Below, one piece after another: positions 1 to 15,061 of a DNA stretch of 64,000 nucleotides. Every line of letters starts with the position of its first letter. Positions within the stretch are counted from its first letter, which is position 1. The position numbers and the translations under genes were made by a program. The DNA lies in NCBI GenBank assembly GCA_009729775.1, contig GCA_009729775.1_4081.1; one strand, given 5' to 3'. The DNA is from Escherichia coli (GTDB lineage: Bacteria; Pseudomonadota; Gammaproteobacteria; Enterobacterales; Enterobacteriaceae). Under the pieces are notes generated by a model, which saw nothing but the letters and a program-made list of their open reading frames with translations, was not told the origin of the DNA and did not search any database.

Positions 1-497
1 TCAATATCAATGTATTTCCTTGCGATATCTGCGTTTATGGACAAATACAAACTACCACCTGTCCTCTGACTCAGGATTCCATCTATCTGCGATATAGGAT
101 GGTTGTTATTGAGGATAAGCATTATTGTACTTATCTTGTGTGCTAATAACTCTATCTCATTCATAATTTACCTTATGGATTCGGGTGCAATAAATGATCT
201 TGATAACTTAAATGCTCTTGTGATATTGCACTTAAATAATAACTAAAATTTTCAATACCACCCTTTAAATGTATATTGTAATACAACTTAATACTTACTA
301 ATAAAGAATCATTTAAATCATTTATTGCTTTTGTATTAACCACTTTCATTAATGTTCTTCTCTTAAAAATCGTTTGATAGCATAATCTAAATAAAATTCA
401 TAACACATGCTATCTCTGTTCTTTATCCATATTTTGTAATCGGATTTTATATTACTTAACAAATAATTTGTATTAATTGTGTAATAATCTAATCGCC

Positions 498-887
498 CTA
501 ATCGTGCCATTTAATAGGATACTCCTTTCCTTGTACTACATAAGATATAATCCATCCGTAATGAATAGGACTATTCTTTTCTCCTTTAGGAATAAAATAT
601 AAAGATGTACTAGGATTATAACTGAATAAATCATTATTGTCAAATGTAAAATGAGATAACGTTATCTTCCTTGTACTTGGACTAATAACATTCTTAACAC
701 CAAACACGGTATCTTGATATTTCTCTGAAAATTCAAACAATGCATCTGTAATTAAATCATTGAATTCTATACATAATGGTTTAAAAGAACCATCATTATC
801 TTTGAATTCCTTATATAAAGAGCTTCTTGTATTCAAAAGAAATATTACTTTTTTAAGATCCTGAACTATTTCTGGATTCATATTCAT
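498..887 (-). CDS. hypothetical protein (129 aa)
   Basis: ORF-track minus ORF at the distal end of the paralog operon; start may be an internal Met. Confidence 0.5.
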   Translation of the reverse strand: MNMNPEIVQDLKKVIFLLNTRSSLYKEFKDNDGSFKPLCIEFNDLITDALFEFSEKYQDTVFGVKNVISPSTRKITLSHFTFDNNDLFSYNPSTSLYFIPKGEKNSPIHYGWIISYVVQGKEYPIKWHD

Positions 888-1119
888 TTATCTCATTCTG
901 TATCTTAAGCATCAAAATTTGCATATTAATTTTTTGTACAAGGTGCTTGATAAATTTCTGTGCCATTTCTTCTTGTTCTTTTGTACCAAGATAAAATAAC
1001 AGATTAAATTCTGATAATCGCAAAGAAAAATCTTCATCACCACCCTTTAAACAAAAATCCCTGTACTTTGTAGCGTACAAATATTGGTTTACCTTTTTAT
1101 AATACCCTGTGTTTTGCAT
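853..1119 (-). CDS. family-A small paralog (88 aa)
   Basis: Contains FYLGTKEQEE variant of the LGTNYQE family motif; packed end-to-end with neighbours. Confidence 0.55.
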   Translation of the reverse strand: MQNTGYYKKVNQYLYATKYRDFCLKGGDEDFSLRLSEFNLLFYLGTKEQEEMAQKFIKHLVQKINMQILMLKIQNEINEYESRNSSGS

Positions 1120-1307
1120 ACTATCTCCGTTCGCAACGAATTTATATAATAATGAACAAATTGTTCTTGTGAACGTGTTCCAAGAAAAATAAACATATCA
1201 AACTCTGTTGTTTTTAAATTCAATGCATCTTTTGTAAAATTCCTGTTGAATTCCCTGTACTTTTGGGTCTTCCATTCTTGATTAATTGTCTTGTATATCG
1301 ATTTCAA
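1089..1307 (-). CDS. family-A small paralog (72 aa)
   Basis: IFLGTRSQEQ motif; overlaps neighbours by a few nt. Confidence 0.55.
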   Translation of the reverse strand: MKSIYKTINQEWKTQKYREFNRNFTKDALNLKTTEFDMFIFLGTRSQEQFVHYYINSLRTEIVCKTQGIIKR

Positions 1308-1608
1308 TGATTCTCCCTGACATACCTTGTATTAGCTTATCATACATATCGAGCATCACTTTTTGAATATTAATTAGTACTGGCATCGTGCAAATATCAA
1401 TGTCGTATACTAAGCTGTACTGGAATAATTCATCTTCCTGCATTTGTACTAAATTAGGTAAAGGATAATTGTCTGCCTCTTCATCCTGATACTTGAAATG
1501 CATAACACCATCCTTTTTGTACAAAAGAATGTCAATATCACCTAACTCTTCTGCATAACCAAAAATACATATACTCGATGTTTTTGCTATATTAAATTTC
1601 ATATACAT
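1282..1608 (-). CDS. family-B protein (108 aa), ELFQYSLVYD motif
   Basis: Shares the acidic-FQYSLVHD motif with 1611, 2230, 2582, 41600, 57592 and 63199. Confidence 0.55.
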   Translation of the reverse strand: MYMKFNIAKTSSICIFGYAEELGDIDILLYKKDGVMHFKYQDEEADNYPLPNLVQMQEDELFQYSLVYDIDICTMPVLINIQKVMLDMYDKLIQGMSGRIIEIDIQDN

Positions 1609-1610
1609 CC

Positions 1611-1925
1611 TTATACATAAATTTGATAGACATTTTGAACAAAATACTTTGGAAGACTACTATATGATATCATCTGCCTTTGTACTTCCTTCATCTCTTC
1701 CAATGTCAATCCCAAAGAATCATCGTGTACTATCATGTACTGAAACTCGTCTTCTTCAGAGATATCAAATAAATTCGGTACTGCAATTATATCAATACCT
1801 ACCATCCAAAAAAAAGAATTATTACTTTTTCTGTACTCAAAAAAATTCAAAGAAGAACCACTCTGTAAATCAGATACCATAATGGAACATTCATCGTTAC
1901 GTACAATACAATTGAATTTACGCAT
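1611..1925 (-). CDS. family-B protein (about 104 aa), DEFQYMIVHD motif
   Basis: Start adjusted to internal Met (MRKFN...) that abuts the stop of the upstream gene (TAATG overlap). Confidence 0.5.
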   Translation of the reverse strand: MRKFNCIVRNDECSIMVSDLQSGSSLNFFEYRKSNNSFFWMVGIDIIAVPNLFDISEEDEFQYMIVHDDSLGLTLEEMKEVQRQMISYSSLPKYFVQNVYQIYV

Positions 1926-2170
1926 TATCTCCACCTCTCTCCGTCTGTACAAGAGTACTGGTACGTTGTCGTTAGGGTAGGGACCATGTTTGTAATGGGC
2001 ATGTTGTTAACAATAACCGTAACAGGCATAAGAATCGTCTCTTCTCTACTCTGTCCTGTCCTTGTGCAATTCATCTTTTGCATTTCATCTGAATCCATGA
2101 AATACAATACAAATGGTGCAATCCCAAGAACAATACACAAGACGATAAGGAAATTTAAAAAATTTAACAT
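1925..2170 (-). CDS. small membrane protein (81 aa)
   Basis: Hydrophobic N-terminal helix MLNFLNFLIVLCIVLGIAPFVLYF. Confidence 0.5.
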   Translation of the reverse strand: MLNFLNFLIVLCIVLGIAPFVLYFMDSDEMQKMNCTRTGQSREETILMPVTVIVNNMPITNMVPTLTTTYQYSCTDGERWR

Positions 2171-2229
2171 AATTTTTACCCTATGATTAACGTTAGTGTA
2201 CTATATCAGTAATGAAAAGTACTATCAAG

Positions 2230-2616
2230 CTAGTATTGCACTGTTCTAATGAAAGTGCCTGAACTCATGGATTTAAGCTTATGAACCTCTTCCTGTATAC
2301 CCTTGATTAACCCTAAAGGTATAGGTACATCATGTACTAAGCTGTACTGAAAGTATTCTTCTTCAGATAAAGTACTAACATCTGGAACTCCAATTTTAGT
2401 TAGATAATCTTGATGTGTTGACCAATAAATTATATCTTCAGTAGAATTGTACTCCCCATATACTGAACAATATTGATGAATATCTTTCCTGTACCCTTGA
2501 GCAATAAAGAACTTATCTACTGCATTACCAGCATTAATAGAATTCACTTCGATTGTCACAGTACTTGAGCTTGTATAACTCTTAATACTCAACTGTGTGT
2601 TCTTCATAATCACCAT
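2230..2616 (-). CDS. family-B protein (128 aa), EEYFQYSLVHD motif
   Basis: ORF-track minus ORF; family motif present. Confidence 0.55.
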   Translation of the reverse strand: MVIMKNTQLSIKSYTSSSTVTIEVNSINAGNAVDKFFIAQGYRKDIHQYCSVYGEYNSTEDIIYWSTHQDYLTKIGVPDVSTLSEEEYFQYSLVHDVPIPLGLIKGIQEEVHKLKSMSSGTFIRTVQY

Positions 2617-2926
2617 TAGGCTCCTGTTTAGATTCTTTCATTAGTACTATCATCTTATGTACTAATGGCATAGGGAACTCTAAATCCCATACTAATGATT
2701 CCTGGAAGTATTCCTCTGGTGATAAAGTACTTAAATCTTTAATATCAACGTGCTTGTATATTTTATTTTCGTAATTAACAAATGATATATATAAATCACT
2801 AACATAAGAATCATAGGTAATTGTGAATGGCTTACCCTTGTAATCCATTACATCTCTACATAGACTACTTTTGATATATGTATGTTCAAATGATTTATAT
2901 ACCTTGAGTTGTATATTAGTTTTCAT
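2582..2926 (-). CDS. family-B protein (114 aa), EEYFQESLVWD motif
   Basis: ORF-track minus ORF; family motif present. Confidence 0.55.
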   Translation of the reverse strand: MKTNIQLKVYKSFEHTYIKSSLCRDVMDYKGKPFTITYDSYVSDLYISFVNYENKIYKHVDIKDLSTLSPEEYFQESLVWDLEFPMPLVHKMIVLMKESKQEPNGDYEEHTVEY

Positions 2927-3191
2927 ATTTCTCTTTATTAGCTTGTTTGGTTTTATAGTGAATTAAATCTATTAATGTAATCAAGTACAACTTCAAAAAG
3001 TACTCTTGATGGTTCGTACCTAATGATACAAAGAATTTATGCTCATAAATTAAAACCTGTTTCACTTCAAAAGGACACTTAATCCTCTGTATAGGTTTAA
3101 GTAAATGGTAGTACTTGTATAATCTATTATGCATTTCTAATTCAGATAGTACTTTCATATTAAACACATACTCCATTAGCTGTAGCATCAC
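2916..3191 (-). CDS. family-A small paralog (91 aa)
   Basis: SLGTNHQEYF motif. Confidence 0.55.
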   Translation of the reverse strand: MMLQLMEYVFNMKVLSELEMHNRLYKYYHLLKPIQRIKCPFEVKQVLIYEHKFFVSLGTNHQEYFLKLYLITLIDLIHYKTKQANKEKYEN

Positions 3192-3381
3192 GTAAAGCTG
3201 TCAAATACTTCTGTACTGCTTGCTCTTGCTTATTTGTACCTAAAAGTATATACATCCATAATTCACTGTAATGTACATCTTGTGTATAAGGGTTGTTGTA
3301 ACTTTTTGATAATATAGCATCAAATTCAGATGCATGAACCCTTGTGAACTTAAGCATATCTTGTTGTGTTATGATTCTCAT
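3160..3381 (-). CDS. family-A small paralog (73 aa)
   Basis: LLGTNKQEQAV motif. Confidence 0.6.
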   Translation of the reverse strand: MRIITQQDMLKFTRVHASEFDAILSKSYNNPYTQDVHYSELWMYILLGTNKQEQAVQKYLTALRDATANGVCV

Positions 3382-3593
3382 ATCTTTTCCTGTATAAGCT
3401 TCTTAAGAATCTCAATATATGAATTAACAGTTCTCTCTTGATGCTGTGTTCCTAAGAGTGTCAGTACTATCATATCTGAACGCAAAAGATTTTTTTCAAG
3501 TTCACTTATATCAGTTCTTGAATCAAGTGCCATATATTTGTGATTATTCTTCCTGAATAGTGCCAAGTACTCTTGATTTGATATTTCCTTCAT
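3378..3593 (-). CDS. family-A small paralog (71 aa)
   Basis: LLGTQHQERTV motif; ATGA-type overlap with neighbour. Confidence 0.6.
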   Translation of the reverse strand: MKEISNQEYLALFRKNNHKYMALDSRTDISELEKNLLRSDMIVLTLLGTQHQERTVNSYIEILKKLIQEKI

Positions 3594-3817
3594 AGTCTAT
3601 CCTTGATGCCATTTAAAAGTGCTCTAATATGCTCATTGACAAAACGCTCTTGGGAATCTGTGTTTAGAGTGAGAAGCATTCTTAAATCTGAACTTTTTAT
3701 ATGATATTCTAAATCATTCTTTGATTCTCGCATAAGTTTCTGAAAGGATGAGAAGTGTAATCCCATGAGTTCAATGTATTCTGCTGTTCCTAGGGGTTTG
3801 TGTATATGTTTGTGCAT
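3590..3817 (-). CDS. family-A small paralog (75 aa)
   Basis: LNTDSQERFV motif. Confidence 0.6.
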   Translation of the reverse strand: MHKHIHKPLGTAEYIELMGLHFSSFQKLMRESKNDLEYHIKSSDLRMLLTLNTDSQERFVNEHIRALLNGIKDRL

Positions 3818-4029
3818 TTTAATTGTATTACCCTTTTGAGTGTATTAATGTAATTATACACATTGGCTTCTTGATAGTTAGTTCCTAGAGTAGCTTGAAC
3901 GTAGATTTCATTTAACTTAATGATTTTATCAGTATCTGGTAGTTTTGATGTGTTAATGGCAAATAACTTCAAAAACAGTCCATTTATGATTGTTAGGTAT
4001 TCTTCTTCTGTAATGATTTTCATTTGCAT
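3790..4029 (-). CDS. family-A small paralog (79 aa)
   Basis: LGTNYQEANV motif. Confidence 0.6.
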   Translation of the reverse strand: MQMKIITEEEYLTIINGLFLKLFAINTSKLPDTDKIIKLNEIYVQATLGTNYQEANVYNYINTLKRVIQLKCTNIYTNP

Positions 4030-4235
4030 TTTCTCAGTACTGATTCTTTAAGTTCATTGATGTAGTCCTCAATGTATTGCTCTTGTAAGTTAGTTCCAAC
4101 ATATAAAAGAACTCTTAAATCGGCTCTAAGTACTTCTTTGTCATCATCATCTATATCAGACAGTGTTATGTTTAAGAATTTACTTGCATTCTCTATAAGT
4201 AATATTACTGAATCACCTTCGCTTAAAATTTTCAT
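4020..4235 (-). CDS. family-A small paralog (71 aa)
   Basis: VGTNLQEQYI motif. Confidence 0.6.
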   Translation of the reverse strand: MKILSEGDSVILLIENASKFLNITLSDIDDDDKEVLRADLRVLLYVGTNLQEQYIEDYINELKESVLRKCK

Positions 4236-4443
4236 AATCTCTTTTTGCTTTCCTCGCCAAAAGGTACATATACGATTCTTCGTATTGTGCTTGATAGTTT
4301 GTGTTTAAGAGTCGAAACAACTTCTGTTCTGCTAGAACGAGTTGCTTATCTTCATAACAACGATAGCGTATCAACTTTTTGTATTCGATGTTGATTACAT
4401 CCATTACTATAAGCCCATGTTCATCATCTGTCAAGTGTTTCAT
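4213..4443 (-). CDS. family-A small paralog (76 aa)
   Basis: LNTNYQAQYE motif. Confidence 0.6.
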   Translation of the reverse strand: MKHLTDDEHGLIVMDVINIEYKKLIRYRCYEDKQLVLAEQKLFRLLNTNYQAQYEESYMYLLARKAKRDYENFKRR

Positions 4444-4669
4444 GTATCTTTTCCTTAATAGTGATTTTAAGAGATTTAATTATACGTTCAACGTGATACT
4501 CCTGTCTATCAGTTCCAAGAAGGTATGGTAGTGCTTGGAATAGAGCTTCCGCATTCTTTTCCTCTGGGGTTTGGTTTGGATCATTAGGAAGTTGATTGGC
4601 ATATCTCTTGGCACTAACTAATCTCTCGACGTATTCATTATATGTTAAGTATATCATTTCATTTTGCAT
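4424..4669 (-). CDS. family-A small paralog (81 aa), near-duplicate of 4659-4895
   Basis: LLGTDRQEYHVERIIKSLKITIKEK; close protein and DNA identity to the next gene. Confidence 0.6.
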   Translation of the reverse strand: MQNEMIYLTYNEYVERLVSAKRYANQLPNDPNQTPEEKNAEALFQALPYLLGTDRQEYHVERIIKSLKITIKEKIHETLDR

Positions 4670-4895
4670 TTACTTTTTCCTTAATAGTAATTTTAAGATA
4701 TTTAATTATACGTTCAATGTGATACTCTTGCCTATCAGTTCCAAGAAGGTATGGTAATCTTTGGAATAAAACTTCTGCACTCCTTTCTGCTGGGGTTTGG
4801 TTTGTGTTGTGAGGAAGTTTATTTGTAAGTCTTTTGGATTTATCTAGTCTTTCTGTTAACTCATCATGTGTTAAGTATATCATTTCCTTTTGCAT
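4659..4895 (-). CDS. family-A small paralog (78 aa), near-duplicate of 4424-4669
   Basis: LLGTDRQEYHIERIIKYLKITIKEK. Confidence 0.6.
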   Translation of the reverse strand: MQKEMIYLTHDELTERLDKSKRLTNKLPHNTNQTPAERSAEVLFQRLPYLLGTDRQEYHIERIIKYLKITIKEKVNAK

Positions 4896-5122
4896 TTAAT
4901 GTTCCTTACGTAAATTGTCTGGATTAAACAATCAATCCACGTTTGAATATATTGGTTTTGATACTGTGTGCCTAAAAGACTCTGCATTTTAAACTCTGCT
5001 TCAAGTTCATATCTCTTTTCTATAGAAAAGCTTAAATGACCATATTCCCTATCGTATCTTCTATGAGCTTCGCCAAGTCTATCAAATCTTTCTGATAATC
5101 TGATGTTATTAATTTTATTCAT
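4880..5122 (-). CDS. family-A small paralog (80 aa)
   Basis: LLGTQYQNQYI motif. Confidence 0.6.
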   Translation of the reverse strand: MNKINNIRLSERFDRLGEAHRRYDREYGHLSFSIEKRYELEAEFKMQSLLGTQYQNQYIQTWIDCLIQTIYVRNIKCKRK

Positions 5123-5409
5123 CGCTCAGTACACCTTAGTGGACGGGTCATTTGATAAAAGTACAGCTTACCTCTGATTTCCATTAGTAATTCATTTAAT
5201 ACGCGTTCTACCTCTTGTTCTTGATAGTTCGTGCCTAACAATGCACCCATCTTTAACTCACGCATCATAATCATCTTCTTACTGTGTTGAATTTCTGGGT
5301 TGTGATAGATTGTATTACGTTTAAGAGTAATTTTTGCCATACGCTCGGTATATTCATCTTTACTTAAATTAATCATTTTCATGTTAATTACCCTTACATT
5401 TATTTTCAA
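5119..5409 (-). CDS. family-A small paralog (ORF 96 aa; likely start at internal Met near 5382)
   Basis: LLGTNYQEQEV motif; internal MKMINLSKDEY matches the family N-terminus. Confidence 0.6.
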   Translation of the reverse strand: MKINVRVINMKMINLSKDEYTERMAKITLKRNTIYHNPEIQHSKKMIMMRELKMGALLGTNYQEQEVERVLNELLMEIRGKLYFYQMTRPLRCTER

Positions 5410-5614
5410 TACTATTCATGAGTTCTATAAGATAGTTTTCTACCTTACCTTCCTGATAGTTAGTCCCTAGGAAGTTGCACAACACGGCTTCTATAATTTT
5501 GATTTTCCTGATATCCGACTTCAATCTTTTGTTATTGAATATTTGAATCCTTATATCTCTGGATGCATTTAAACGTTTTTGATAGTCATGGTAAGTTAAA
5601 TGAATCATTTTCAT
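5384..5614 (-). CDS. family-A small paralog (76 aa)
   Basis: FLGTNYQEGKV motif. Confidence 0.6.
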   Translation of the reverse strand: MKMIHLTYHDYQKRLNASRDIRIQIFNNKRLKSDIRKIKIIEAVLCNFLGTNYQEGKVENYLIELMNSIENKCKGN

Positions 5615-5829
5615 TTACGTTTAACCTCTCGCTGGAGGGCATCAATTAACATTAGTACAGCATTCTCTTGATAGTTTGTTCCTAAGACTGAAAGCATCTT
5701 TATCTCATTTACTAAAATCAACTTCTTTGAGGGTTCAATAATGTGACTATCATAAACGGCCTTACGTGCTGGATAAGTTTTCGCCAGTATAACATAAAAT
5801 TCGTCTTTACTTAAATTAATCATTTGCAT
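5611..5829 (-). CDS. family-A small paralog (72 aa)
   Basis: VLGTNYQENAV motif. Confidence 0.6.
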   Translation of the reverse strand: MQMINLSKDEFYVILAKTYPARKAVYDSHIIEPSKKLILVNEIKMLSVLGTNYQENAVLMLIDALQREVKRK

Positions 5830-6038
5830 TTACTTTTAACCTCTTTCTGTAGAGCGTCAATCCATAGATCTACATACATTTGTTGATAGTTTGTGTCTAT
5901 TAGTGCACCTACATAGAGTTCAGCTACCATTGCGTGCTTTATGTCAATAGGGATGCTCTTATCAGATTGAATCTTTCTCCTTCTGCTTCCACATGTTTTC
6001 AGGAGCCTGATGTATTCAAAACCTTGTAAATTTCTCAT
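5820..6038 (-). CDS. family-A small paralog (72 aa)
   Basis: LIDTNYQQMYV motif. Confidence 0.6.
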   Translation of the reverse strand: MRNLQGFEYIRLLKTCGSRRRKIQSDKSIPIDIKHAMVAELYVGALIDTNYQQMYVDLWIDALQKEVKSKCK

Positions 6039-6250
6039 ATTTTGGATACCACCTTGTTACGTAAGGAACTTAATAATACGTCAGTGTAGATGTTTTGATA
6101 GTTTGTTCCTACGAATGCACCCAACTTCATTTCAGCTATTATAACACATTTGTCCTCTTGTGCAATAGACTTGTCTAAAGAAATACTAACAACTTTCCCT
6201 CTTATAGTTTGTAACCTCCAATGATACTGATACTCATTAAGGATTATCAT
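6035..6250 (-). CDS. family-A small paralog (71 aa)
   Basis: FVGTNYQNIYT motif. Confidence 0.6.
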   Translation of the reverse strand: MIILNEYQYHWRLQTIRGKVVSISLDKSIAQEDKCVIIAEMKLGAFVGTNYQNIYTDVLLSSLRNKVVSKI

Positions 6251-6497
6251 TCTCTCGTCTCCAGATTTCGGTTCTCATGTGTTGGCAGTGTGCATCAATA
6301 TATTGCTCTATCGATCTGGCGATTGCTGTTTTATCAGTGCCTGTCATCAGTACAAGCATCTCTGCCTCACTATGAATTAAACGCATGATATCATAGGGTA
6401 ATATTTCAGATACTGTATCATAGTGTTTGTGTGTCAGTGTCTGCAATAGTTTACAATACATTTTGTGATTTAGTCTTTGTCGCATTGTTTCTTCCAT
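6237..6497 (-). CDS. divergent family-A-like small protein (86 aa)
   Basis: LMTGTDKTAIARSIEQYI in the family motif position. Confidence 0.5.
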   Translation of the reverse strand: MEETMRQRLNHKMYCKLLQTLTHKHYDTVSEILPYDIMRLIHSEAEMLVLMTGTDKTAIARSIEQYIDAHCQHMRTEIWRRENDNP

Positions 6498-6742
6498 TCT
6501 CTTCTGGCTTGACGGGTTTTTTCTGATATTTCGTTTCTCAATGCAGAGATATATCGTAGAGTGAACAGTTCTTGATAGTTAGTCCCTATGAATTTATTAA
6601 GATATACATCAGCGTTGACGATATCAGCTTCACGGGAATTATAAAGTTTATTGTTCGTGCGAAGGGTGTTTAGAAGAGAGAAGAGGGCAGTCTGATACTC
6701 AGTGCTTGATAAAGTTTTCATATTTTTCCACAATTCGTTCAT
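6470..6742 (-). CDS. family-A small paralog (90 aa; start may be internal)
   Basis: FIGTNYQELFT motif. Confidence 0.55.
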   Translation of the reverse strand: MNELWKNMKTLSSTEYQTALFSLLNTLRTNNKLYNSREADIVNADVYLNKFIGTNYQELFTLRYISALRNEISEKTRQARREWKKQCDKD

Positions 6743-6956
6743 TTAGTTTTATCTGTATAAGATCCATTAGTTGTTCAAGATAATCGGTACAATATTTCTC
6801 TTGATATTGGGTTCCCACAAAGTACAGCAACCATAGCTCATGAACTTTAACTTTCATCTCGTTCCATGAAAGTGCATCGTCATCGTAGATTACTCTTGCT
6901 TCTGGGGTGAGCTTTCTAACTCTAATTGAATATTCATCGTCAGTTAAGTGTTTCAT
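6699..6956 (-). CDS. family-A small paralog (85 aa)
   Basis: FVGTQYQEKYC motif. Confidence 0.6.
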   Translation of the reverse strand: MKHLTDDEYSIRVRKLTPEARVIYDDDALSWNEMKVKVHELWLLYFVGTQYQEKYCTDYLEQLMDLIQIKLNERIVEKYENFIKH

Positions 6957-7171
6957 TTACATTTATCCCTTATTAGATTTGTGAGGGCAACTATGTGTGC
7001 AACAACATACTCTTCCTGAAAGTTCGTCCCCAGTACAGCCATCATGCGTATATCGGTGGTGTTTATCCTGTGTTCCCTTACACATAAACCTTCTTTGTGA
7101 GGAAGTGTAAAATATTTGTTTATTGCAGCAATGACAATTTTATTCTTCTCGGTGATACTTAAATGTTTCAT
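6953..7171 (-). CDS. family-A small paralog (72 aa)
   Basis: VLGTNFQEEYV motif. Confidence 0.6.
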   Translation of the reverse strand: MKHLSITEKNKIVIAAINKYFTLPHKEGLCVREHRINTTDIRMMAVLGTNFQEEYVVAHIVALTNLIRDKCK

Positions 7172-7380
7172 AGTTTACTCCTGATATAATTCTGAAGTGC
7201 AATTAAGTATTCCCCTACATAATACACCTGAAAGTCTGTATCAAGGAATGCACCCATAAGTAAATCTTTTTCTAATACCCTTGATAAGTTAAGGTCTGCA
7301 TTTGAAAGGTATATAAGTAAGATTTCACCCTGTGCGGAATTGAAACGTTTCTTATATTCTTCTGGTGTTAAAAAAATCAT
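7168..7380 (-). CDS. family-A small paralog (70 aa)
   Basis: FLDTDFQVYYV motif; close paralog of 7377-7592. Confidence 0.6.
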   Translation of the reverse strand: MIFLTPEEYKKRFNSAQGEILLIYLSNADLNLSRVLEKDLLMGAFLDTDFQVYYVGEYLIALQNYIRSKL

Positions 7381-7592
7381 AATTTGCTCCTGATATATTT
7401 CTCAAGAGATGACAAATACTTTTCCTCATAATACTTCTGATAGTCTGTTCCTAAGAATGCACCCAATAGTATATCATTTTCCAATACCTCGGCTAAGTTT
7501 AAATCAGAAGTCTCTTCGTATATTATGAGGATTTCAAGTTGTCTGGCAGCGATGCGTTCAGTATATTGATATGAGTTTTCTATAATAATCAT
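7377..7592 (-). CDS. family-A small paralog (71 aa)
   Basis: FLGTDYQKYYE motif. Confidence 0.6.
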   Translation of the reverse strand: MIIIENSYQYTERIAARQLEILIIYEETSDLNLAEVLENDILLGAFLGTDYQKYYEEKYLSSLEKYIRSKL

Positions 7593-7798
7593 AATTTACT
7601 CTTTATATCTTCTATTAAAAATCGAATCCATTCTTCAACATAATCTTCCTGATGGTTTGTGTTCAGTACAGCCAACATGCGGATCTCTGCTCTTGCAACT
7701 TCAATTTCAGTTTTAGGAAGGTCTTTGCTGATATCCACCATTAAGTCCATGTATTTCAAGATAAGTCCGAATGATTGGGTTCGTGTTATAGTTTTCAT
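7589..7798 (-). CDS. family-A small paralog (69 aa)
   Basis: VLNTNHQEDYV motif. Confidence 0.6.
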   Translation of the reverse strand: MKTITRTQSFGLILKYMDLMVDISKDLPKTEIEVARAEIRMLAVLNTNHQEDYVEEWIRFLIEDIKSKL

Positions 7799-7995
7799 TG
7801 TTTCCTCGTGGACAATGTTTTATTTTTCAATGTATCCACATATTTCGTTACCCATGCATCCTGATAGTTAGTTCCCAATGTAATCAAAAGGTATAACTCC
7901 ATTCGTTCTACGTGTGAGTCTGTATTATAAATCTTTGTGAAGTTTTTACGTAACAGTGCTTGATATTCTTTTTCGGTTAATTTACGCATTTTCAT
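7795..7995 (-). CDS. family-A small paralog (66 aa)
   Basis: TLGTNYQDAWV motif. Confidence 0.6.
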   Translation of the reverse strand: MKMRKLTEKEYQALLRKNFTKIYNTDSHVERMELYLLITLGTNYQDAWVTKYVDTLKNKTLSTRKQ

Positions 7996-8189
7996 AGTTT
8001 ACTCGTTACATCTTCAATTAAATACCAAATCCAATCGTTGACATACCTTTCCTGAAAGTTAGTTCCAATGAATAGTGCCATAATTAATTCACGCTTATAG
8101 GCAATACCACGGTCATGGGACTTATACATTATCATAGCCATGTTATTGATAAGTCTTTCGTGGTGTTCTGCTTGAGTTAAAATACGCAT
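7992..8189 (-). CDS. family-A small paralog, first gene of the array (about 65 aa)
   Basis: IGTNFQERYV motif; start adjusted to MRILTQ... preceded by AAGGGAG RBS. Confidence 0.6.
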   Translation of the reverse strand: MRILTQAEHHERLINNMAMIMYKSHDRGIAYKRELIMALFIGTNFQERYVNDWIWYLIEDVTSKL

Positions 8190-8438
8190 AGGGACTCCCT
8201 TAAAATTAATATCAATCATATTTTATACGATTTGTATAAAAAGTCAATAACATTTTATTCGTAATACCCCTTTATCGAAGTCGCTAAGGTTACCCGCCCT
8301 TTAGCCCCCTACGCATTTTGCCATAGTCCAATCCCTTTTATTTCAAAAAAGTCAAGGGATTACCTATGCATTTTTTTAACGCATAATTTTAAAAACGCCT
8401 TGACTTTTTTCTGAATCAGTACTAGATCCCTTTACGCA
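8190..8438 (-). promoter_or_regulatory. non-coding leader upstream of the family-A operon with hairpins
   Basis: No ORF; inverted repeat AATCCCTT...AAGGGATT and several TTGAC-like boxes on the minus strand. Confidence 0.3.
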
Positions 8439-8648
8439 TTAATCCTTCGTTACGCTAACGATTATCTGTGTATCCCCGTAGTCCTGCCATACTTCCACGC
8501 CATCCGTCGCCCTGGTTAGTCGTGCTGTCATCTGCTTAACAGTCTTAGGCTTTAGTGGAACCTGTTGCAGTACTGTACGCATAGCATCACTGACGTTATC
8601 ATGTACGCCAGCAATAGTACCTAGAACGCTGTATACTGTATAGAACAT
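8439..8648 (-). CDS. hypothetical protein (69 aa)
   Basis: ATG preceded by AGGAGGG RBS on minus strand. Confidence 0.6.
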   Translation of the reverse strand: MFYTVYSVLGTIAGVHDNVSDAMRTVLQQVPLKPKTVKQMTARLTRATDGVEVWQDYGDTQIIVSVTKD

Positions 8649-8716
8649 ATGTATGCCCTCCTGATATAGTTAAGGCCGCTAGAGAGCGGCCTATGATGTT
8701 TGGTGATGTGTAATGC

Positions 8717-9118
8717 TTATAGTCCTAAGATAGTGCGTGCTTCGTTACGTTCCGTCCATAGCTGCATGATGTGAGCAAGTAAGTCCTTACTAATGTATCC
8801 GGTGTTCATAGCTTCACGGATAGATACATCATAAGCACCGAACCCCGTGCGAACGATACGCACATCATTTAGGTTAGTGTTATAGATACCGCCAAGATCA
8901 ACGGCTTCGAATACTGCATCAACTGAATACTCATTGTTACCATCGTTGAAGTTTTCTAGTGCAATAGTATTGGATACCGCCCAACGTTTGCAGTTTCCAA
9001 TGATGCGGCATTGTTCCGGTTGGAGAGTGCCATTACTTACAGCGTACTCCAGTGCATCTTTACCAAAAGTCCGAGCCAGTACTAAAACGTCAGCGAAGGA
9101 AGTGATTGAGAAGGTCAT
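8717..9118 (-). CDS. hypothetical early protein (133 aa)
   Basis: Start adjusted to MTFSITSF... with AAGGAG RBS; upstream part of the track ORF is the hairpin leader. Confidence 0.65.
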   Translation of the reverse strand: MTFSITSFADVLVLARTFGKDALEYAVSNGTLQPEQCRIIGNCKRWAVSNTIALENFNDGNNEYSVDAVFEAVDLGGIYNTNLNDVRIVRTGFGAYDVSIREAMNTGYISKDLLAHIMQLWTERNEARTILGL

Positions 9119-9739: not shown

Positions 9740-9779
9740 ATAATAGCAAAGGGACTGACCGGAGTCAATCCCTTTTTTT
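9740..9779. terminator. stem-loop cassette GGGACTGACCGGAGTCAATCCC with flanking T-run; TTGACT box inside the stem
   Basis: Hairpin 9751-9772, T7 run on plus side; on minus strand TTGACT-N17-TATTAT promoter geometry. Confidence 0.55.
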
Positions 9780-9991: not shown

Positions 9992-10079
9992 AATGTTTTA
10001 CTCCTAAAGGTGCGGGAGAACTATTCCCCCGCTCTATGTAAAACATTATACATTATCTTGTAGTACTGTCAAATAGTTT

Positions 10080-11233: not shown

Positions 11234-11261
11234 ATTATACAGTACTGATATACTTTGTCAA
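11234..11261 (-). promoter_or_regulatory. sigma70-type early promoter (minus strand)
   Basis: Minus strand reads TTGACA-N16-TATAAT with CAGTACTG abutting the -10. Confidence 0.6.
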
Positions 11262-11640: not shown

Positions 11641-11673
11641 TGAGTTATCTCTCAATGAATATATAATAGCAAA

Positions 11674-11701
11674 GGGACTGACTGGAGTCAATCCCTTTTT
11701 T
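11674..11701. terminator. stem-loop cassette GGGACTGACTGGAGTCAATCCC plus T-run
   Basis: Same cassette as 9740-9779. Confidence 0.55.
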
Positions 11702-15004: not shown

Positions 15005-15032
15005 TTTGTTTCTATGCGTATATAATAGCAAA

Positions 15033-15061
15033 GGGACTGACCGGAGTCAATCCCTTTTTTA
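15033..15061. terminator. stem-loop cassette GGGACTGACCGGAGTCAATCCC plus T-run
   Basis: Same cassette as 9740-9779. Confidence 0.55.

Follow-up and report, generated by a model that had tools for sequence, protein, structure and literature searches.

We analyzed two adjacent genes, A (family member 10, 81 aa; 4424-4669, minus strand) and B (family member 11, 78 aa; 4659-4895, minus strand), in a 64,000-nucleotide stretch of DNA from an Escherichia coli assembly, hereafter the window. With a probability of roughly 80%, A and B are old tandem paralogs of phrog_4148, a birth-and-death family confined to Asteriusvirus-type jumbo phages, and the pair as it now stands was built by exchange between phages together with the loss of neighboring genes. 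Tandem pairs that have diverged are expected and ordinary in phage paralog arrays, and this one matters little in itself. The useful result is the corrected picture of the array, in which old paralogs are held under purifying selection, exchanged as cassettes at gene junctions, and subject to deletions that leave chimeras. The array is also a pointer to an uncharacterized, lineage-restricted family of putative early genes that makes up ~5% of the genes in a 350-kb phage.

Judged by its matches, the source of the window is an Asteriusvirus-type jumbo coliphage of the PBECO4/121Q group. Positions 800-8300 matched 34 phage records (30 named as Escherichia phages and 4 as Salmonella phages, with two duplicate RefSeq entries among the 34), and the best full-length matches were UB (90.5%), WPEC5, Ecwhy_1, PBECO4, and 121Q. 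The minus strand of 853-8219 holds 26 small ORFs of 66-96 aa, with neighbors overlapping by 4-44 nt. Of these, 24 form the main array block (2916-8219), in which successive family genes overlap and leave no intergenic space, and two more (853-1307) are set off from that block by genes of the phrog_13866 family (1282-2926). A central L-G-T-N-Y-Q-E-like motif is common to all 26 ORFs, and a family HMM applied to the full 64 kb placed 26 of 26 members inside the array and none elsewhere. The members tested (A, B, 22, 23, and 15) each gave a full-length match to phrog_4148, with E-values from 1e-17 to 1e-22; A matched with E = 4.2e-22 (residues 5-77 on profile positions 1-73 of 74) and B with E = 3.8e-20. 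Relatives annotate the same genes as phrog_4148, and some of their array members carry the label "No_PHROG." The phrog_4148 entry (Asteriusvirus, for example SHEFM2K and 121Q) represents the same family and comes without a description of function, structure, or evolution. A Pfam-A scan of members returned only sub-threshold chance matches (16.9 and 15.2 bits, with the gathering threshold at 27).

The genes that split the main array are themselves tandem paralogs. This second family comprises four minus-strand genes encoding 108-128 aa (1282-1608, 1611-1952, 2230-2616, and 2582-2926), and both of the members scanned (1282-1608 and 2230-2616) matched phrog_13866. All four carry repeat segments around a ...EEEYFQYSLVHD... 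motif.

A and B lie side by side in the same orientation and overlap by 11 nt. Their proteins share 53 of 75 aligned residues by BLASTP (71%, E = 1e-39), and their DNA forms a direct repeat of two ungapped 226-nt units (4438-4663 and 4664-4889) with 80% identity, which is the sole long repeat within 1-9000, every other being 89 nt or shorter. In the 325 pairwise comparisons among the 26 members, A/B was the top outlier, at 68-71% amino acid identity against a median of 27.5%. The second-closest pair, taken from the ORF list and pairwise identities, consists of members 22 (7168-7380) and 23 (7377-7592), both on the minus strand, which share 51-56% amino acid identity with a dS of ~0.97. These values bear out much of an earlier sequence-only reading, which had described the two ORFs and their peptides on the minus strand, their similarity at the DNA level, the distance of most other members, their origin as tandem duplicates (they are paralogs adjacent in the array), and the 7168-7380/7377-7592 genes as a second, older pair. 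That reading had also called the two proteins near-identical, which captured a similarity far beyond chance but overstated it: identity is ~55% over the N-terminal 40 codons (dN 0.25, dS 0.67) against ~89% over the C-terminal 35 codons (dS 0.33 in the 3′ half), and the predicted pI is 5.6 for A and 9.5 for B. It had named low nucleotide identity as the observation that would count against a recent duplication; at 80% the identity is not low, but this measure cannot separate a recent duplication from an old one. For the whole pair, dS was 0.48 and dN/dS ~0.35, beside a dN/dS of 0.39 for 22/23 and 0.08-0.49 for orthologs, all of them rough estimates given the small size of the genes. The value of 0.35 indicates that both copies are maintained genes under purifying selection.

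To place the pair among its relatives, the interval from gene 9 (4213-4443) to gene 12 (4880-5122) was compared in 13 related genomes. This interval holds a sub-cluster of related gene types, designated B, Y, A, Z, and X, plus gene 9′. The orthologs of B are 98% (UB), 94% (WPEC5), and 92% (121Q) identical to it in nucleotide sequence, with dS values of 0.07-0.14, so that dS between A and B is 3-7 times that of B orthologs between isolates. A is 85-86% identical in nucleotide sequence to the Y genes of UB, E9.1, SHEFM2K, and Ec-M-J, compared with 80% to B, and differs from 121Q gp334 by a single base. In bootstrap resampling, A grouped with the Y genes, not with B, in 492 of 500 resamples. The order 12-B-A in the window is collinear with 12-B-Y in UB at 91% identity, which makes A the positional allele of Y. 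Since UB has B-Y at the same place, the duplication that gave rise to B and Y is older than the divergence of the sampled phages. Collectively, these comparisons show that one tandem duplication after another had produced types B, Y/A, Z, and X by the time the sampled phages split. A similar array was also seen on a more distant, uncultured phage contig (ENA ERZ14189038 NODE_1, 101 kb; locus L015, 5707-14369), which carries at least 16 members, mostly in tandem and all ≤39% identical to one another; the array expansion is therefore older than Asteriusvirus itself.

The similarity of A to its relatives changes along the gene. Over nt 31-60, A has 1 mismatch in 30 to Y and 13 in 30 to B, and over nt 151-210 it has 5 mismatches in 60 to B and 9-11 in 60 to Y, so that A is a mosaic with a Y-type 5′ third and a 3′ third closer to the B type. 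Resampling by segment gave the same division, with A joining Y in 500 of 500 resamples for nt 1-75 and joining B in 453 of 500 for nt 151-225. That A and B resemble each other more closely toward the 3′ end may in part be due to gene conversion. The mosaic suggests such conversion, though not decisively, because the synonymous sites of the 3′ part show no preference for B: across codons 41-75, A is slightly nearer to Y (4 differences) than to B (6). The B-like 3′ third of A could alternatively stem from accelerated change in the Y lineage.

Taken further, the mosaic would fit a history of concerted evolution: A and B would be far older still, and repeated gene conversion between neighbors would have kept up their similarity, especially in the 3′ half. 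We regard this as possible but doubtful. Besides the mosaic and the grouping of the 3′ third with B, it would account for the lower dS in the 3′ half (0.33 against 0.67), but the counts behind that difference are small (6 versus 10 synonymous differences), and it sits poorly with 3′ synonymous sites that are no nearer to B than to Y. No other neighbors in the array have been homogenized, with adjacent pairs averaging 30% amino acid identity and non-adjacent pairs 27%. Furthermore, the conserved 3′ end carries the ribosome-binding site and start of the next gene, and this constraint can explain part of the similarity.

Old paralogy must also be weighed against the account favored by the sequence-only reading, namely a recent tandem duplication at this place by unequal crossing-over in an array that is still expanding. 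Such an event would leave what is seen locally, two adjacent genes with a 226-nt period at 80% identity that are the closest pair in the array. Recent duplicates should, however, be mutual closest relatives when related genomes are included, and A is nearer to Y, as found in other phages, than it is to B; the dS of such duplicates should also fall below that of orthologs, and 0.48 lies well above 0.07-0.14. UB already has B-Y at the same place, and the nearest donor lineage is not the same for A as for B, as described below. Copy number does vary among related isolates, as that reading had proposed to check, with 25-31 HMM-detected copies in 11 relatives (the counts in UB, PBECO4, and CMSTMSU being disturbed by frameshifted ORFs), but with 26 the array of the window is among the smallest. 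Fresh duplicates were absent from all 12 genomes searched (the window and 11 relatives), none of which has a paralog pair above 75% amino acid identity, and thus nothing shows ongoing expansion. We therefore consider a recent local duplication very improbable, and "recent" has to be dropped. Of the proposal that the array is still expanding by unequal recombination, the remodeling by recombination holds, as seen in the 25-31 copies, the chimeric genes, and the swapped order of 22 and 23 described below, while the expansion does not. An assembly or annotation artifact, in which a collapsed or mis-joined repeat yields a spurious pair, can be dismissed: beyond the general tendency of repeats to mislead assemblers nothing specific speaks for it, the copies differ at 20% of positions and are easy to assemble, and the independently sequenced 121Q has the same B-A-9 order with an A gene one base different.

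The reading of A and B as old paralogs brought together by exchange was supported by the arrangements of the sub-cluster, of which there are at least seven among the related phages. In transcription order, UB has B-Y-X-9′-9; PBECO4, E9.1, SD-1, and Ec-M-J have Y-X-9′-9; ELP-22 has a B/Y chimera followed by X-9′-9; and the window and 121Q have B-A-9, with 121Q the only one among the 34 matching records to share the arrangement of the window. The chimeric gene of ELP-22 joins a B body to a Y tail, and another in UE-S1 joins a B body to an X tail. Both chimeras would be the expected product of deletion by unequal crossing-over between adjacent paralogs. The presence of types X, Y, Z, 9′, 7′, and 13′ differs from one relative to another, and the pair 22/23 is present everywhere, with its order inverted in 121Q, WPEC5, Ecwhy_1, and Ec-M-J. 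The family thus combines diverged tandem paralogs that differ in copy number and in presence or absence between genomes, chimeric genes and order changes attributable to recombination, and copies under purifying selection, which is the pattern of birth-and-death evolution. On these comparisons, its turnover is dominated by loss, chimera formation, and the exchange of old alleles.

Some positions of the array are occupied by very different alleles. Gene 12 is 90% identical in UB and 43-46% identical in 121Q, PBECO4, and E9.1, and for gene 12, genes 19-21, and genes 25-26, different isolates hold alleles that are only 32-60% identical. This distribution points to cassette replacement rather than gradual divergence.

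We then located where the two donor lineages meet. Compared with 121Q, the window shows 0-1 differences per 50 nt over ~4150-4700 and diverges beyond, and compared with UB, it shows 0-2 differences per 50 nt over ~4620-5020 and 8-14 per 50 nt across A. The overlap of these two stretches (4620-4700) takes in the 3′ end of B and the 5′ end of A, and there the window is all but identical to each of the two phages. As A and B have different nearest donors, a recombination junction between phages is placed at the A/B boundary, within 4620-4700, with 121Q-like sequence to its left (4150-4700) and UB-like sequence to its right (4620-5020). A and gene 9 would have come from a 121Q-like lineage and B and gene 12 from a UB-like lineage, the two having been joined within this shared stretch. 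The B-A pair of the window is, we infer from these matches, a secondary juxtaposition and not a local copy.

The other side of A appears to have been shaped by loss. At the junction of A and gene 9 (4406-4443, minus strand), the window and 121Q are without X and 9′ (~450 nt), which the other closely examined relatives carry between the Y-type gene and gene 9, apart from the frameshift-ridden CMSTMSU record, in which 9′ was undetected. X and 9′ are old, diverged genes. X and gene 9 resemble each other at their 5′ ends (MKYLTDDE and MKHLTDDE, respectively), and a deletion between these ends probably removed X and 9′. That their absence reflects deletion here, not insertion elsewhere, is the likelier direction by majority rule among the sampled phages and by the age of X and 9′. 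We also considered whether the tail of A, "HETLDR," could be a fusion with gene 9′, and rejected this, as the tail is an out-of-frame reading of the start of gene 9 (MKHLTDD).

Exchange at gene boundaries is not limited to this pair. When the window was aligned with ten relatives, 18 of 33 distinct ends of similarity blocks fell within 15 nt of a gene junction (13.7% expected, p = 4e-8); HSP ends mark breakpoints only crudely, and several of them share one junction and so are non-independent. As the blocks begin and end mainly at gene junctions, the genes behave as whole cassettes. Recombination at the central LGTNYQE codons, in the manner of the Staphylococcus aureus lpl genes, was also considered and was rejected, with 4 of 33 block ends near the motif, a chance level. 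The junctions share a short conserved sequence made up of the C-terminal K-E-K codons (AAGGAAAA), which double as the Shine-Dalgarno ribosome-binding site for the gene that follows, a stop and a start that overlap, and the MKxLT codons. This short shared sequence could serve as the substrate for recombination.

The position of the array in the phage genome was examined through its relatives. The direct terminal repeat (DTR) of fEgEco12 is 20,993 bp long, as verified by restriction mapping (PMC13070987), and that of vB_Ec-M-J is annotated at 21,525 bp. Mapped from these two phages, the homologous position of the inner DTR boundary in the window is 8287/8288, which makes the array, beginning 68-98 nt inside the unique region, the first unique block past the left terminal repeat and co-oriented with the genes of the repeat. 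The first array gene has its probable true start at the ATG at 8189, with the Shine-Dalgarno sequence AAGGGAG, and just upstream of this gene lies a sigma-70-like promoter (TTGACT, 16-nt spacer, TAAAAT; 8220-8247, minus strand), identified by consensus match only. Inside the array, a promoter scan found 55 sites against 55.8 expected, a background level, and two internal promoter-like sites (4508-4479 and 4434-4406) were set aside for this reason. From its layout, the array is probably a single early operon with translational coupling between its genes, beginning ~70-100 nt into the unique region. Across the boundary itself, a GC-rich stretch of ~70 nt (~8257-8330) is 100% conserved, with flanks that are ~90% identical, and it may be a terminase recognition or cutting site.

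The proteins of the array are predicted to share a simple fold. An AlphaFold2 model of B, built from a 26-sequence alignment, had a mean pLDDT of 93.7 and consists of three helices (residues 10-25, 35-50, and 56-77), with a beta bridge from residue 6 to residue 53; a fold comparison with this three-helix model yielded no informative match. The near-invariant residues T53, Q56, and L67, with a Gly before the T53 motif, sit at the start of helix 3 in the model, and the near-invariant G-T-x-x-Q motif is probably a helix N-capping box. With the only near-invariant motif serving as a helix N-cap, the surfaces would be free to vary, and the predicted pI across the family ranges from 4.4 to 9.8. Each array gene is thus predicted to encode a soluble three-helix bundle of ~70 aa. 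One variant is longer: in phage UB, a 269-aa protein (AXC36995.1, P0202; locus L001, 2298-3107) has the family domain in its first ~62 residues, followed by ~200 aa of unassigned sequence. This fusion was found on 13 contigs and is therefore no one-off frameshift, and a Pfam scan of it and of a 122-aa relative returned nothing above threshold.

The family is narrowly distributed. When 1.84 billion representative proteins were searched exhaustively with a family profile, 84 clusters only were returned. For the ten clusters that were looked up, and for one that was traced to its source contig, the contigs were in every case compatible with large phage genomes. Those cluster members that carry a name are E. 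coli phage proteins or come from E. coli assembly records, on contigs of ~350 kb. Our search of the literature on Asteriusvirus and Rak2-like phages (CBB, Sharanji, fEgEco12, and phAPEC6) found no description of the array, no data on its expression or on interactions of its products, and no assignment of these products to virions, and a general search on tandem paralogs in jumbo phages returned unrelated eukaryotic papers only. The array would most probably act as a bank of diversified early host-interaction or anti-defense binders. If it is such a host-takeover or anti-defense repertoire, the differences between isolates would be natural experiments linking individual paralogs to host range.

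Several known systems provide context. The MGF110, MGF360, and MGF505 families of African swine fever virus (ASFV) and the terminal variable families of poxviruses are tandem diverged paralogs located by a terminal repeat, and they act in host interaction. Like them, the array lies by a terminal repeat, and its copy number varies among isolates through deletion, chimeras, and recombination; unlike them, it consists of different proteins, of ~70 aa, in one coupled operon of a bacterial virus, and a role in host interaction is here only inferred. We tentatively suggest that the array might be a phage counterpart of these terminal multigene families, a set of 25-31 early three-helix proteins expressed from a host-type promoter, swapped as cassettes at conserved junctions between co-infecting Asteriusvirus phages, and each neutralizing a different host factor or defense system. 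If so, array content would help to set host range. The poxvirus "genomic accordion," known from K3L amplification, involves near-identical, recently amplified copies. It resembles the array in that recombination drives tandem copy-number change in a large dsDNA virus, but the array is without near-identical units, the maximum within-genome identity being 75% at the amino acid level in the 12 genomes. T4-like phages have hyperplastic regions of small early genes, most with no known function, that vary by cassette exchange and are mostly unrelated ORFs. The blocks of the array likewise end at gene junctions, whereas here 26-31 consecutive genes belong to a single paralogous family. Finally, the S. 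aureus lpl cluster is also a tandem paralog cluster remodeled by recombination between copies, in which the evolving unit joins the 3′ half of one ORF to the 5′ half of its neighbor, and recombination takes place in a central conserved region (PMC2568036). The block ends of the phage array, in contrast, lie at gene junctions and not at the central motif.

We also note several features of the wider window. Three perfect 12/12 matches to the sigma-70 promoter consensus (TTGACA, 16-17 nt, TATAAT) are present on the minus, coding strand, at 10045-10072, 11234-11261, and 615-643; two of the three fall upstream of the array, in what is presumed to be the terminal repeat. Such sites fit transcription by the host RNA polymerase early in infection. 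A 36-nt element, AAAGGGATTGACTCCnGTCAGTCCCTTTGCTATTAT, occurs in three minus-strand copies (9740-9775, 11663-11698, and 15022-15057) where none is expected, and each copy is a 12-bp hairpin that contains both a -35 (TTGACT) and a -10 (TATTAT) motif. The element, located in the part of the genome assigned to the terminal repeat, may act as a regulated early promoter or operator. Over the window as a whole, the GC skew changes sign near 28 kb, where it becomes positive, and again near 42 kb, where it returns to negative; this implies that the strand of transcription or replication switches. A terminal repeat of 21 kb with its start at 8288 would end close to the first of these switches.
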